From: Escherichia coli
GTDB taxonomy: Bacteria > Pseudomonadota > Gammaproteobacteria > Enterobacterales > Enterobacteriaceae
Reading direction: 5' to 3' (one strand)
Assembly: GCF_003334335.1 (NCBI RefSeq)
Contig: NZ_QOWQ01000052.1
Length of the DNA stretch: 20,350 nt
Shown here: positions 3,734 through 9,529 of the stretch, piece by piece
How positions within the stretch are numbered: position 1 is the first letter of the stretch
Layout of the letters: every line of letters begins with the position of its first letter
Translations under genes and position numbers: made by a program
Notes under the pieces: generated by a model
What the model was told of the DNA's origin: nothing
The model's database searches: none
What the model saw: only the letters and a program-made list of their open reading frames with translations

Positions 3734-3775
3734 GTCATACCACTCGCCTGATTATTTTTAGCTATGTTGGATTTT

Positions 3776-3802
3776 GCCACGGTTTATACCGTGGCTTTTT
3801 TT
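3776..3802 (+). terminator. rho-independent terminator after allE
   Basis: Stem GCCACGG / CCGTGGC (3776-3782 and 3789-3795) with loop TTTATA, followed by T7 (3796-3802), 43 bp after the allE stop. Confidence 0.8.
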
Positions 3803-3810
3803 GTAACATT

Positions 3811-3839
3811 GCCTGATGCGCTTCGCTTATCAGGCCTAC
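3811..3839. repeat. REP-like palindromic unit
   Basis: GCCTGATGCG...CTTATCAGGCCTAC resembles the E. coli REP consensus (GCCKGATGCG...CTTATCMGGCCTAC); it lies in a convergent intergenic spacer. Confidence 0.6.
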
Positions 3840-3887
3840 ATGATCTCTGCAATATATAGAATTTGCGCGATTTTCAGGAAGGATATG

Positions 3888-3915
3888 GTACTCATGCCGC
3901 ATCCGGCATGAGTAC
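3888..3915. repeat. 28-nt perfect palindrome (REP-like, BIME partner)
   Basis: GTACTCATGCCG-CATC-CGGCATGAGTAC: 12-bp arms with a 4-nt centre; the core GCCGGATGCGGC on the opposite strand resembles the start of a REP unit. Confidence 0.55.
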
Positions 3916-3960: not shown

Positions 3961-5106
3961 TTAGTTTTTAATTCCCTGACCTATTTTAATGGCGCAGGCA
4001 ATATTTCGCGCGCTGTTGAAGAGATTGGTTTCACCGCTGGCGAGCACTTCGGCTAAAGGTGCCAGACGAGGCAAAATGCTGAATACCGCGTCAATGCCGT
4101 ACTGGTGCACCACTTCCACGCCATCACCCAATACGCCAGCAATCCCAATCACCGGTACATTAAACTGCTTCGCCACCGACGCCACACCCAGCGGCGCTTT
4201 ACCGCCTGCCGTTTGCGAGTCGATGCGCCCTTCCCCGGTAATCACCAGTGCTGCGCCCTGCACTGCCTGCGCAAGATTGACCGCATTCAACACAATTTCA
4301 ATGCCCGGTTTAATATCCGCATTGAGAAATACCGCCGCCGCAATACCCATACCGCCCGCAGCGCCGCCGCCCGCCATCTGGCAGACATTAATTTCAGTTT
4401 GCTGTTGTAAAACACGGGCGTAATTTTGCAGCCCCTGTTCAAGTTCTTCGACCATCTCCGGCGTTGCCCCTTTTTGCGGGCCAAACACCGCCGCCGCGCC
4501 GCGTGCCCCTACCAGCGGGTTATCAACGTCACATGCTACTTCAATATGGCAATTCGCCAGACGCGGATCGCATTCATCCATCTCAATGCTTGCCACGCGC
4601 GCTAAATTACCACCGTTTGCCGCCAGCGCCTGACCGTCGGCATCAAGGAAACGCACACCGAGCGCCTGCGCCATGCCCATACCGCCGTCGACCGTCGCAC
4701 TGCCGCCAATGCCGAGAATAATATGGCGAATGTCGTTATCCAGCGCATGACGAATTAACTCCCCCGTACCAAAACTGGAGGCCAGCAACGGATTACGCTT
4801 TTCAGGCGCGACCAGCATCAGGCCACTTGCTGCCGCCATCTCAATCACCGCCGTTTTCCCGTCGCCGGTAAGGCCATAAAAAGCATTCACTTTTTCGCCC
4901 ATCGGCCCGCAGACTTCAAGCGTCACGATGTTGCCGCCCGTCGCGGCGACCATCGCATCCACCGTCCCTTCGCCGCCATCCGCTATCGGCAAACAGATAT
5001 AGTTCGCATCGGGAAAGAGGGTCGAAAACCCGGCTTTAATTGCCTGACAACATTTTTCTGCACTTAAGCTCTCTTTAAAAGAGTCTGGCGCAATGACAAT
5101 CTTCAT
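3961..5106 (-). CDS. glxK: glycerate 2-kinase, 381 aa
   Basis: The ORF track starts at TTG 5112; in-frame ATG at 5104-5106 ([12 protein letters not shown]...) with AAGGA upstream gives 381 aa. Glycerate kinase family; last gene of the minus-strand gcl operon. Confidence 0.88.
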
Positions 5107-5127: not shown

Positions 5128-6429
5128 TTATTCGATGCGTTCCCACGGAATAAGGTTATCCATAAGAACAGCCAGTAAAATCCCGACCAATAAGCCGTTA
5201 CTGAGCAGAGGACGAAGCGTTAATGGAAGGTCTTGCAGATACACAGGCGGTAATGCCATTAAAAATATGCCGACAAATAACGGCAATGCGAGTCGATAAA
5301 TATTGCGAGCGGTAAACGTTATTTGCTGGCTAAACACCAGCGCGGAAAAGAGTAAAGGCAGATAAGAAACCAGCATGACCGCACTACTCACGGGTAAAGG
5401 GATACTGCAAAACAGTCGCGTGAGTGCAGGAACCAGCGCCACCAGCAGGCAAATAACGCTGCCATAAATAAACGAACGCCGCGTGTAATCGCCAGTCTGG
5501 GTTAATAAACCAATGGATGAAACAAACGGTGAAAATGGAATTACCGCCAGCGGTACGGTTATCAGCGTCATAAATCCGGTCGCCACAAAGCTACGACGAT
5601 AACGCGTATTCCCTGCGCCCTGCTGCGGATAAAAAACATCCGTGCCCCGAATCGCACCGTAGGTATTGCTGATATTTACCAGACCTGTAATCACCGCCGT
5701 CAGAATAATTCCCGGCGACAAAGCACCGCCACTGCCGAGCGGGAACCACTGCCAGTGCAACTCACCGGAGAGCGAGTGCGAAGAAGGAAAGCAAAAGTAC
5801 CACAACAACCAGCCGGTTATGGTGCCGACCAGCAGGCCATAACGGGCAAAACGTTGCGGCAGGAAGATAATCATCGCCAGTACCAGGCACATCACCGCCA
5901 CCGAGAGCGCGAACGGCGGTAACTGAATTTTAAAATTCGGGTCGGCTATGCCAAACGGCAGCCCGAGCATACCTTTGAAAAAGATAGTGGTCAGCTGCGC
6001 GCCCAGCATCAACATAAACAAGACCATCACCGACGGCGTAAATAACCGTGCCAGGCGATGGCCTAATCCGCTAAAACCAATCAACATCGTCAGCACGCCG
6101 GAGAGTGCAATCCCCACTGCCAGGCTGGTGGCGATATCGTTGATCGGTGTCCCGCGCGATGCTTCACCAAGGGTGATAGTAAGGATGGTTCCCCACCACA
6201 GGCCACCTGGCCCTTCCATAATAGCGCGACGATGACCGCAAAACGCCTGAGCGAAGCAGGCCAGTGCGGTAGCAAGAAAAGCATATTGCGTGAGCGTAAG
6301 CAGGCTACTTTGCGGCAACTGAAAAGCAGAAAGTAGCGTAGGAGGAACCACAACCGTGTTGCAAAAAATAAAGAAAAACCACTGAAATCCTGATAACAGG
6401 CTTTCGCGGCTGACTGCAAAATTGAACAT
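5128..6429 (-). CDS. ybbY: putative purine/nucleobase permease (NCS2 family), 433 aa
   Basis: The ORF track starts at GTG 6435; in-frame ATG at 6427-6429 (MFNFAVS...) gives 433 aa. Polytopic membrane protein; 21-bp gap to glxK. Confidence 0.8.
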   Translation of the reverse strand: MFNFAVSRESLLSGFQWFFFIFCNTVVVPPTLLSAFQLPQSSLLTLTQYAFLATALACFAQAFCGHRRAIMEGPGGLWWGTILTITLGEASRGTPINDIATSLAVGIALSGVLTMLIGFSGLGHRLARLFTPSVMVLFMLMLGAQLTTIFFKGMLGLPFGIADPNFKIQLPPFALSVAVMCLVLAMIIFLPQRFARYGLLVGTITGWLLWYFCFPSSHSLSGELHWQWFPLGSGGALSPGIILTAVITGLVNISNTYGAIRGTDVFYPQQGAGNTRYRRSFVATGFMTLITVPLAVIPFSPFVSSIGLLTQTGDYTRRSFIYGSVICLLVALVPALTRLFCSIPLPVSSAVMLVSYLPLLFSALVFSQQITFTARNIYRLALPLFVGIFLMALPPVYLQDLPLTLRPLLSNGLLVGILLAVLMDNLIPWERIE

Positions 6430-6485
6430 AAACACACCTTAACCGGAGAATGCCCGCCGCAAGGACGGGCATTGCAGGGGCCAGA

Positions 6486-7847
6486 TTACTGCTGATGTTT
6501 AAGGATAAATTGACCTTTCGGCGCAACAGGGAAGCCCTGTTCAATGTCGTAAATCACATCACCACGTAAGATGGTTTTCGTGATACGCGCGCCAATGGTA
6601 CGGCCAACATACGGGCTGACTTTGTGGCGATATTCCAGATCGTCATTGGTAAGAACATAGCTGCTATTCGGCTGAATGAAGACGAAGTCGGCATCTTTTC
6701 CTGGGGCGATACGGCCTTTTTGCTGCAGACCGAAAATATCTGCTGCGTTAGTCGCCATTAATTTGCCGAACATTGGCAGAGACATACCGCGTTTCTGTAC
6801 CGCTTCATCGAACATCACGTCCATGCAGCTTTGCAGACCGGCGATACCGCCCCATGCTTTCATGATGTTACCGGCTTTCATTTCCGGCGGGCATGGAGAG
6901 TGGTCGGAAACCAGGCAGTCGATTTCACCGTTAAACAGTTTTTCCCACATGCCTTTCTGGTTTTCCAGATCGCGGATCGGCGGTGAACACTTCGCCAGAG
7001 TACCGATTTCTTCGAACTGATCGGTATCCAGTACAAAGTAATGCGGGCAGGATTCACAAGTAACGTCCTGACCTTCCTGACGTGCACGAGTCACTTCCTC
7101 AACACCTTCCGGGCTGCTGACGTGGCAAACGTGCAGACGGCAACCAGCAACTTTCGCCAGATACAGTACGCGGCGAATTGCTTCCACTTCGGTAAATACC
7201 GGACGCGAAGCCACATAGTCATGAGCGGTTACGCGACCTTCACGCTTCGCTTCTTCGCCCAGTTCGTCACAAATCAGCGCGTTTTCGCAGTGCACCAGCA
7301 CCGGCTGACCCAGTTCGCCCAGCTTCTGCGCACCTTTGAAGAACTGCCAGTCGTTTACATCACGGAAGTCGTTGTCGATACCGCGATCGCCACAGGTCGC
7401 AACGAAGCATTTGAAGCCGACAACGCCCACTTCATCCAGCTCATGCAGACGGTCGATGTTGTAAGACACCAGGCCACCGAGTTGTGCCGCATCAATAGTC
7501 AGCTTGCCTTTAGCGGCATCGAACTTCAGTTCAATTGAAGCGCGGTCAACCGTTGCAGGCAGCTGGTTGAGCGGCATTTCGATCATGGTGGTGATACCAC
7601 CTTTTGCCGCTGCGCGAGTACCGGTTTCATAACCTTCCCAGTGGCTACGACCCGGTTCAGAAATATGGGTGTGCGCATCAACCATGCCCGGCGAAACCAC
7701 CAGACCAGACGCATCCATAACTTCTTTTGCATCGCCCAGATCCTGACCGATAGCAGCAATTTTTCCGCCTTTAACGGCGATATCTACAACGCGAGCTTCG
7801 TTTTCTAAAATAACGGTGCCGTTTTTAATGATTAAATCAAAAGACAT
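6486..7847 (-). CDS. allB: allantoinase (cyclic amidohydrolase), 453 aa
   Basis: ATG at 7845-7847 with AAGGAG upstream; metal-binding motif DAHTHIS near the N-terminus; 453 aa; sequence recognised as AllB. Confidence 0.92.
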
Positions 7848-7906: not shown

Positions 7907-9361
7907 TTAACCTATGGTTTTTTGCTCTCCTGTTTTTTCTGCTGTTGTACGTTTCTTTAATAAGGCGTAGGCCGCAAAGGCGACGATGACGCCGACAAAC
8001 CATGAAACACGCGATAACGGTTCCATAAAGTGAATAAACTTACCGCCAAGAGATAAAATAACGGCCACCAGAGTTACTGAAAACGCAGTGAGGTTAAAAC
8101 CGTTATCGTAATATTTATAATCGCCAGGTGCGGTATACAGTTCATCAAGATTAATTTGTCCGCGCATCACCACAAAATAATGCGCCATCATGACACCAAT
8201 TACCGGACCAAGCATTCCGCCGATAATATCGAGGAAAAGATAAATGCTGTCCTGATTTTCCATTAATTTCCACGGGCAGATCAGCAAGCTGATAATACTG
8301 GCAATCAGTACGCCGTTTTTATAGGTCAGTTTTGTCGGTGCAATGGCGGCAATCTGATAACCGGCTGGAATAATATTACCGGTCGCGTTAGTGGAGATAG
8401 TTGTCATCAGAATAACCAGTACCGCAAAGAACGAGGCGAACAGGCTGTCCCAACGCTGAACAATATCCAGCACGTTCCAGGTATCAGCGCCGTAGTGAAT
8501 ACTGGCTCCGGCAATAATACATACCCCGGCGACCGCAAACAGAATATAGGCCACAACTAAACCCAGCGTTTGCCCCAGCGCCTGCTCACGAAACGAGTGG
8601 GCGTTTTGCGTAAAGTCGGATGCGCTCACCGCCGGTGCCGCCCAGACCGCAACTACCGCGTTAATCACCACCAGGAACAGGAAGCCACCGTTTTCTGCTT
8701 TCTGAATACCGCTCGGAATGTAGTCAAAGATTGGACCGATCCCGACCAGTGAAATCGCCCAAATCGCCATACCGCCGAAAACGATATAGATGCACGGGTT
8801 AAGAATGGCAGTGAATTTATTTAAAACTTTGCCACCGCCAAAACCTATACCAACGTTGACCAGCCAGAAGATTAAGAAAGTAATTAAGCCCGGTAGAGAA
8901 AGGCCTAACAGAGTGAAATCACCACCGAGAGTTAAAAATCCCGGCCAGATTTTGCCAATCAGAATCAAGCAGGCCAGTGACCCCGCGTAACATTGCAAAC
9001 CAAACCACATGATGGCGGCAATTCCGCCCCTTAATAATCCGGGAAACAGTGCACCACGTACACCGTAAGAAGCACGCAGGATCATGGCAAAAGGCACACC
9101 GTATTTACTGCCCGCAGCACCGTTTAATACCATTACCGCGGCAATGAAAAAGGCGCTGAGGATAATTGCCAGCATAATACTAAAGGTAGACAAGCCGAGA
9201 ATAAAAAAGCCGCCGACCATCACATAATTGGGAACGTTATGAACCGAACCCATCCATAAGGTAAAATAGTTAAATGTTTTCCAGGTCCGCTGGCTTTGCG
9301 TTTTCGGCAATAGATCTTCGCTATAGCCGCGTTGCTGGAATAGTTTTCTCTGATGTTCCAT
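7907..9361 (-). CDS. ybbW: allantoin permease (NCS1 family), 484 aa
   Basis: ATG at 9359-9361; 484-aa multi-helix membrane protein; lies between glxR and allB as expected for the allantoin transporter. Confidence 0.88.
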   Translation of the reverse strand: MEHQRKLFQQRGYSEDLLPKTQSQRTWKTFNYFTLWMGSVHNVPNYVMVGGFFILGLSTFSIMLAIILSAFFIAAVMVLNGAAGSKYGVPFAMILRASYGVRGALFPGLLRGGIAAIMWFGLQCYAGSLACLILIGKIWPGFLTLGGDFTLLGLSLPGLITFLIFWLVNVGIGFGGGKVLNKFTAILNPCIYIVFGGMAIWAISLVGIGPIFDYIPSGIQKAENGGFLFLVVINAVVAVWAAPAVSASDFTQNAHSFREQALGQTLGLVVAYILFAVAGVCIIAGASIHYGADTWNVLDIVQRWDSLFASFFAVLVILMTTISTNATGNIIPAGYQIAAIAPTKLTYKNGVLIASIISLLICPWKLMENQDSIYLFLDIIGGMLGPVIGVMMAHYFVVMRGQINLDELYTAPGDYKYYDNGFNLTAFSVTLVAVILSLGGKFIHFMEPLSRVSWFVGVIVAFAAYALLKKRTTAEKTGEQKTIG

Positions 9362-9529
9362 AAATCCCTCTTAATTTCACGTATCGAATAACGTTGTTTT
9401 AATCTAGCTATGAGGAACAAATAAAATAAAAATATTATTTTTAATACTGAAGCAACATCTTTGGCTGCTTTCTTTTTTAATATTGCTGGCCGATTCATTT
9501 TCTGATATCGGCCATTTTTATTGCGGGTA

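Follow-up and report, generated by a model that had tools for sequence, protein, structure and literature searches.

A conserved intercistronic hairpin between allB and ybbY in Escherichia coli and its relatives: a putative 3′-boundary element of allW-allB

The gap between allB and ybbY in Escherichia coli holds an mRNA-strand hairpin that recurs, with compensatory base changes, at the same junction in seven genera. With moderate confidence, we read it as a conserved 3′-boundary hairpin of allW-allB, which would act as a leaky terminator in relatives and, in E. coli, as at most a weak terminator combined with an exonuclease barrier, keeping ybbY-glxK mRNA below allB mRNA. As such it is an unannotated instance of an already familiar type of operon-tuning element.

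Position and fold of the hairpin

The window (the whole analysed stretch, 20,350 nucleotides) represents the E. coli allantoin/glyoxylate cluster, and the 321 bases around the hairpin match many E. coli chromosomes at 100% identity, the flanks there being annotated as allB and ybbY. The two genes are separated by 56 nt (6430-6485), with the stop codon of allB at 6486-6488 and the ybbY ATG at 6427-6429. Within this gap an earlier note had described a GC-rich 8-bp stem around nine nucleotides at 6449-6473, and the repeat is indeed there: AATGCCCG (6449-6456) and CGGGCATT (6466-6473) lie 9 nt apart and their arms are 100% complementary. The strand had been left unstated; since allB and ybbY are both encoded on the minus strand, the fold that the mRNA would adopt is that of the minus strand, on which the stem is 10 bp rather than 8 bp long (AAUGCCCGUC-CUUGC-GGCGGGCAUU; 7 G-C, 2 A-U and one U.G pair) and closes a 5-nt loop (Table 1). 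The fold-energy calculation that had been proposed as a check gave a minimum free energy (MFE) of -15.4 kcal/mol (z = -4.0, mRNA strand), a stability reached by 0/200 shuffles. The hairpin corresponds to positions 540521-540545 (plus strand) of MG1655, a placement derived from the allB end (540508) and the ybbY start (540565), and the RefSeq annotation of that genome lists no feature in the allB-ybbY gap.

Table 1. Features of the allB-ybbY junction and neighbouring genes (positions in the window)
Feature	Position	Strand	Basis
Hairpin 5′ arm, AAUGCCCGUC	6464..6473	-	MFE structure, inverted repeat; alignment columns 26-35 pairing with 41-50
Hairpin loop, CUUGC, 5 nt	6459..6463	-	MFE structure; variable among E. 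coli
Hairpin 3′ arm, GGCGGGCAUU	6449..6458	-	MFE structure, inverted repeat, alignment
C-rich 12-nt spacer from allB stop codon to stem, UCUGGCCCCUGC	6474..6485	-	sequence
Post-stem tail, CUCCGGUUAAGGUGUGUUU, 19 nt to ybbY ATG, degenerate U-tract	6430..6448	-	sequence, tail scores
ybbY Shine-Dalgarno AAGGUG, inside post-stem tail	6435-6440	-	sequence
allB (allantoinase), upstream gene; hairpin at its 3′ end	6486..7847	-	
ybbY (putative purine/xanthine-uracil family transporter), downstream gene	5128..6429	-	
glxK, downstream of ybbY	3961-5106	-	
allW/ybbW	7907-9361	-	

Taken as a bare inverted repeat, the element is only mildly unusual at the scale of the window: the exact repeat pattern occurs at one site (0/100 shuffles), perfect 8-bp inverted repeats with loops of 3-12 nt are found at 6 distinct sites (vs 3.7 +/- 2.4 in shuffles), and approximately 0.01 of them would be expected in the 56-nt gap. 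The stronger case against chance comes from conservation and covariation.

Two established classes were considered and rejected. Membership of a known RNA family is contradicted by the Rfam scan of the whole window, in which nothing at the hairpin reached a gathering threshold (P9, the best overlapping match, reached 15.4 bits where gathering requires 43, E = 2.6). Although the hairpin resembles REP/BIME elements in being a GC-rich intergenic palindrome, those occur as many dispersed copies with a shared consensus, whereas the present sequence is unlike the REP consensus and single-copy (median of 1 place per genome for a 45-nt query in distant mode over 5339 genomes), which also speaks against any other repeat family.

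Conservation, covariation and strand bias

The YbbY protein scan (one genome per species) recovered 32 loci, 20 of which carry allB directly upstream of ybbY; these belong to Escherichia, Citrobacter, Superficieibacter, Klebsiella, Raoultella, Buttiauxella and Serratia (seven genera), together with an Enterobacteriaceae isolate. In all of the 20 whose fetched sequence extends far enough allW lies upstream of allB, and in 19/20 glxK follows ybbY. A strong hairpin is present in every one of the 20 gaps, 16-32 nt before the ybbY start, and in the short-gap orthologues its stem starts 9-13 nt past the allB stop codon.

From a MAFFT alignment of 19 distinct sequences, RNAalifold found the same 10-bp helix, which is 93.2% paired and has changes on both sides in 8/10 pairs. 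None of 500 column shuffles matched the observed paired fraction or covariation score (the orthologues being phylogenetically related, p-values drawn from them are not independent tests), and sliding the 3′ partner by 1-3 columns, as a control, left pairing at only 35-48%. Among the 16 plainly homologous hairpins (all except those of Buttiauxella and Serratia, which may be replacements rather than homologues) pairing reached 96.9%, with compensatory changes in 5/10 pairs (e.g., A-U to G-C, U-A to C-G, C-G to U-A, G-C to A-U). The stem arms of Escherichia are identical to those of Citrobacter FP75/werkmanii and differ by one change from those of Superficieibacter (where the U.G pair becomes U-A), and the flanks have diverged on both sides in the former and likewise in the latter. 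Across all orthologues the half-site sequence varies with pairing kept, and the loop ranges from 3 to 7 nt. The allW-allB gap, an internal control of similar length, yielded a best hairpin of -4.7 kcal/mol on average, vs -20.0 for the allB-ybbY gap. The earlier note had made its reading depend on conservation of the stem in orthologous loci; that comparison has now been run, and the stem holds in seven genera, with compensatory changes and a bias to the sense strand.

Several of these loci have expanded gaps. In Klebsiella, Raoultella and a metagenome-assembled genome (MAG; loci L012, L013, L015, L017 and L032) the allB-ybbY gap is widened to 160-184 nt by long palindromic inserts that separate the allB stop from the conserved hairpin. 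Those of Raoultella, K. grimontii and K. oxytoca are REP-like, and K. spallanzanii has a long CTCCCTCTCCC...GGGGAGAGGG palindrome. In Superficieibacter sp. 1612_C1 (L020, 2311-2500) the hairpin occurs twice, just past the allB stop and just before ybbY, and the approximately 110-nt GC-rich structured insert between the copies looks like an insertion with hairpin duplication. Two records with unexpected labels, the 'Sporobacter termitidis' MAG (L017, JAJUHI010000052.1) and 'Chryseobacterium sp. 18061' (L030, CACSKA010000001.1), contain an Enterobacteriaceae-type allB-ybbY-glxK locus; their AllB is ~92% identical to that of E. coli, the latter locus is nearly identical to that of Citrobacter 18056, and both are probably due to contamination or mislabelling.

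The hairpin is specific to the junction. Where ybbY is not preceded by allB (Kluyvera, MGYG110 and Providencia) no such hairpin was found and the upstream regions differ, and hence an obligatory ybbY leader was rejected. In Kluyvera and a relative, ybbY comes after either a LysR-type gene or unrelated DNA, and the ~110 nt upstream of it form a distinct, strongly conserved region; this region (ATATTCATCACACAAATAATGCATTTCATGC...GCATTTCATTCC...TTTTCAGGC in L008, 2320-2485, with equivalents in L009, L010, L011, L029 and L033) holds a direct repeat as well as a small hairpin with compensated variation in its stem, has no match in Rfam, and is probably a promoter/operator or a leader. In Providencia, the sequence upstream of ybbY is AT-rich and without structure.

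Within E. coli, 5339 of the 5426 complete genomes have the site, each in a single near-invariant copy. Approximately 4200 genomes carry the K-12-type allele and about 1100 a B2-type allele (loop C-to-U, upstream C-run one C shorter), while in the divergent strain E69 the U.G pair is replaced by C-G, which strengthens the stem. In strain GPEC1446 (NZ_CM142773.1; L039, 1513-1537) the 9-nt inter-arm spacer is inverted (CCGCAAGGA in place of TCCTTGCGG), either through a small flip between the inverted repeats or as an assembly artefact, and the allele still folds (-14.8 kcal/mol). All E. coli alleles seen keep or strengthen the pairing, and none breaks the stem. Two of the 5342 places matching the junction in these genomes lie on plasmids and the rest are chromosomal. 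In strain ECONIH1 (NZ_CP009859.1; L005, 1-2500) ISEcp1 with blaCTX-M-15 is inserted ~36 nt into ybbY, just downstream of an intact allB and hairpin, and the match to the window ends at 6394.

The conserved fold appears to be that of the operon transcript. The core hairpin is on average more stable in sense orientation (-15.6 kcal/mol, against -13.7 for antisense; Wilcoxon p = 0.003, indicative only as the sequences are related), many helix cells are G.U pairs, which a DNA palindrome or the opposite strand would hold as A.C mismatches, and in 19/19 sequences U is more frequent in the sense tail than in the antisense one. This strand bias, the G.U pairs and the fact that half-site and loop length vary while pairing is kept argue for an RNA element rather than a protein operator. 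The opposing idea, that the repeat is a DNA palindrome bound by a dimeric regulator and thus an operator inside the operon, could appeal to the perfect 8-bp inverted repeat with its 9-bp spacer; it is barely credible to us, as the half-sites differ between genera without loss of pairing, the loop length is not fixed, the G.U pairs make the DNA palindrome imperfect, stability depends on the strand and the site is single-copy in the genome. Nor does the repeat seem to resemble the AllR operator. A bidirectional terminator or an antisense function was likewise rejected: the plus-strand tail reads GCAGGGGCC, the antisense tails of the orthologues are U-poor, and there is no convergent gene.

Terminator anatomy and the proposed role

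Intrinsic terminators combine a GC-rich stem of ~5-14 bp and a loop of 3-8 nt on the transcribed strand with a U-tract (roughly >=5 U in 8) immediately 3′ of the stem. Stem and loop of the E. coli hairpin fall within these ranges, and it lies 12 nt past the allB UAA, oriented with the gene. The tail differs: CUCCGGUU has 3 U in its first 8 nt, the d score (-14.4; -0.6 for the E69 allele; Table 2) is below the terminator threshold, and the consensus terminator scan of the window made no call at the site. The remark in the earlier note that no T-run follows the stem (tail CTCCGGTTAAGG) stands. U-tracts are present in relatives. A U-run immediately past the stem is clear in about half of the orthologues, and a terminator-like tract occurs in Citrobacter 18056 (UUUUUUCU), Buttiauxella agrestis (UUUUUUGU), B. 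brennerae (UUUUUUCC), and Raoultella and K. oxytoca ((C)UUUUUC).

We scored the hairpins with a d'Aubenton-Carafa-type d score (d'Aubenton Carafa et al. 1990; with modern ViennaRNA energies), taking as controls the window's allE terminator (+42.7) and that terminator read on the wrong strand (-48) (Table 2). The hairpin family has the anatomy of intrinsic terminators, with the Escherichia copy at its weak end.

Table 2. Terminator d scores of the allB-ybbY hairpin
Source	d score
Citrobacter 18056 / isolate 18061	+45, +47
Buttiauxella agrestis / B. brennerae	+32, +34
Raoultella, K. oxytoca	+14
Superficieibacter	+11 to +13
Buttiauxella B2	+10
Citrobacter FP75, C. werkmanii, RIT691, Citrobacter R56, Serratia	-0.3 to +3.4
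E. coli E69	-0.6
K. spallanzanii	-7
E. coli window and B2-type alleles	-14.4
K. grimontii	-30

The terminator-like versions stand 16-27 nt from the ybbY start codon, a distance too short for a promoter. As no promoter fits before ybbY, a terminator at this place in the relatives would have to be leaky, with ybbY-glxK reached by read-through. In the window, a search for an internal ybbY promoter (minus strand, 6400-6800) returned no consensus match.

Leaky attenuators inside operons are well established, the classic case being the rplL-rpoB attenuator. The allB-ybbY hairpins resemble leaky intra-operon terminators in their GC-rich stem of 8-13 bp, loop of 3-7 nt, location 9-13 nt past a stop codon and mRNA orientation; a run of 5-6 U comes directly after the stem in Citrobacter 18056, Buttiauxella, Raoultella and K. 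oxytoca, whose hairpins score like the allE terminator of the window. The Escherichia copy differs in being without the U-tract.

We reason that the stem-loop, placed shortly past the allB stop in the gcl-hyi-glxR-allW-allB-ybbY-glxK transcript, may mark the 3′ boundary of the upstream part of the operon. In relatives, hairpin plus U-run would constitute a leaky Rho-independent terminator, so that ybbY-glxK would depend on read-through, while in Escherichia the stem has been retained and the U-tract has decayed to CUCCGGUU. Given a preserved stem and a decayed U-tract, the E. coli hairpin would halt only a minority of polymerases. It may also block 3′-to-5′ exonucleases at the ends of terminated or cleaved transcripts, and the net outcome would be less ybbY-glxK mRNA than allW-allB mRNA. 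The structure, its conservation, covariation, strand bias and restriction to this junction, and the terminator anatomy in relatives are observed; actual termination or stabilisation, and an expression step in E. coli, are inferred.

Of the roles that the earlier note had offered (RNase processing, stabilisation or partial termination), a function at the RNA level at a 3′ boundary gains support from conservation, covariation, sense bias and the U-runs of several genera. Processing of the RNase III type is unlikely with a 10-bp stem, and the partial-terminator reading is weakened for E. coli itself by the U-poor tail (d = -14.4). RNase III sites need about 20 bp or more of near-continuous double-stranded RNA, whereas the core helix here is 10 bp long and the extended fold is interrupted and not significant.

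Competing explanations and operon context

The main rival, which overlaps with the leaky-terminator reading and is not exclusive of it, is a purely post-transcriptional protective 3′ structure of the malE-malF type: read-through would be full, RNase E would cut within ybbY-glxK, and the hairpin would block PNPase and RNase II and so stabilise allW-allB, with no termination in E. coli. The hairpin is what such a structure would look like (stable, 3′ of the upstream gene and conserved, with covariation in seven genera), its stem is kept without a U-tract in Escherichia, K. grimontii and K. spallanzanii, and an RN|WUU-like site (AA|UUU) is found in ybbY codons 3-4. The class is documented in E. 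coli operons, with conservation in Salmonella and Enterobacter, and in malE-malF and menBCE a stable conserved stem-loop likewise lies past the upstream gene with no need of a U-tract (Dar & Sorek 2018, PMC5927463). The malE-malF element, however, is a REP repeat whereas the allB-ybbY hairpin is single-copy, and most structures in PMC5927463 lie inside the downstream ORF (~107 nt in) whereas this one is intergenic. We nevertheless regard it as unlikely to be the whole explanation, for an exonuclease barrier alone would not select the U-runs in about half of the orthologues or the U-richer sense tails in 19/19. The negative E. coli d score, and the fact that in Kluyvera and Providencia ybbY stands apart as a unit behind an upstream region of its own, would also suit a functionless relic in E. 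coli, i.e. what is left of an allB terminator that lost its U-tract once allW-allB had joined ybbY-glxK and whose stem persists for lack of time. This seems rather improbable in view of arms that are identical between Escherichia and Citrobacter FP75/werkmanii, or carry a single pair-preserving change in Superficieibacter, amid diverged flanks; elsewhere the changes are compensatory, and every E. coli allele seen keeps or strengthens the pairing.

The hairpin adjoins ybbY (16-32 nt from the ATG) in spite of insertions of 110-130 nt in Klebsiella and Raoultella, as might be expected if it protected the downstream message in the manner of papBA, where an intercistronic hairpin is likewise found shortly upstream of the downstream cistron: RNase E would cut in the 12-nt spacer and the hairpin would shield the 5′ end of ybbY-glxK from 5′-end-dependent RNase E. 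Although the mechanism is documented (PMC5927463), we find it quite improbable here, since the papBA arrangement is generated by RNase E cleavage whereas the spacer upstream of the allB-ybbY stem (UCUGGCCCCUGC) is C/G-rich and without an RN|WUU site; moreover, it gives no role to the U-run that follows the stem in many orthologues, and ybbY genes with their own promoter have no hairpin. Control of ybbY translation, by a lower helix between the segment following the allB stop and the ybbY Shine-Dalgarno sequence that ribosomes finishing allB would open (coupling), is suggested by the E. coli gap MFE, which pairs AUCUGGCC with CCGGUUAAGGU around the core hairpin. It is highly improbable, as support for the extended fold is weak (z = -1.9 for 61 nt, -1.3 for 121 nt), the lower helix is absent or free of the Shine-Dalgarno sequence in Citrobacter, RIT691, Buttiauxella B2 and others, and the Shine-Dalgarno sequence is only partly paired in the E. 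coli ensemble; the sequestering lower helix, being neither conserved nor significant, was hence rejected. A further reading, very doubtful in our opinion, is a conditional attenuator that would uncouple allW-allB (allantoin uptake, hydrolysis) from ybbY-glxK (transporter, glycerate branch), with read-through set by a factor recognising the conserved AUGCCCG stem or the loop, or by the distance at which ribosomes finishing allB trail the polymerase, the stem beginning only 9-13 nt past the stop codon. Were it true, glxK dosage would respond to something besides AllR and glyoxylate.

Returning to a leaky 3′ boundary, the genes from gcl to glxK are treated as one operon (PMC10163214; PMC12535856), and in an ethylene glycol transcriptome the log2 induction was 8.48 for gcl, 9.38 for hyi, 9.76 for glxR and 4.26 for glxK (PMC11401383). 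The lower induction of glxK is compatible with polarity somewhere inside the operon, a drop that these values place at no particular junction; the hairpin in the glxR-allW gap or differing basal levels could be its source instead. This contrast between glxK and gcl/hyi/glxR was all that the literature search returned on per-gene expression across the junction, and the term-seq supplements of Adams 2021 and of Dar & Sorek 2018 (PLoS Genet) have no allB, ybbY or glxK entries, the operon being silent in those conditions.

If the hairpin works as we propose, the seven-gene gcl operon would be unevenly expressed, with ybbY and glxK below allW-allB at a level set by read-through. GlxK is reported to activate AllB by direct binding, and the AllB:GlxK ratio could then matter for allantoin use (PMC10163214). 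A lag of glxK has already been seen in engineering with gcl-hyi-glxR-glxK for glycolate or ethylene glycol assimilation (PMC11401383). Otherwise, the hairpin would be one more case of a very common device, one that illustrates decay of the U-tract with retention of the stem.

The hairpin in the glxR-allW gap (9487-9514, minus strand) is a perfect 8-bp inverted repeat, TGGCCGAT-N12-ATCGGCCA. On the mRNA strand it folds with -15.4 kcal/mol (z = -5.9), a stability equal to that of the allB-ybbY hairpin, and its tail is A-rich, not U-rich, and is followed by ~120 nt of AT-rich sequence up to allW; some of the polarity from glxR to glxK could be due to it.

At the far end of the operon, the convergent gap between glxK and allE contains matches at Rfam gathering level to STnc480 (3740-3806, minus strand, 87.6 bits) and ES036/CssrF (3832-3874, minus strand, 38.1 bits), which share sequence with the terminator hairpin of allE (3776-3795) and with REP-like palindromes. 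The REP-like elements that follow glxK span 3830-3915 and include a 12-bp stem at 3888-3915 (-22.4 kcal/mol).
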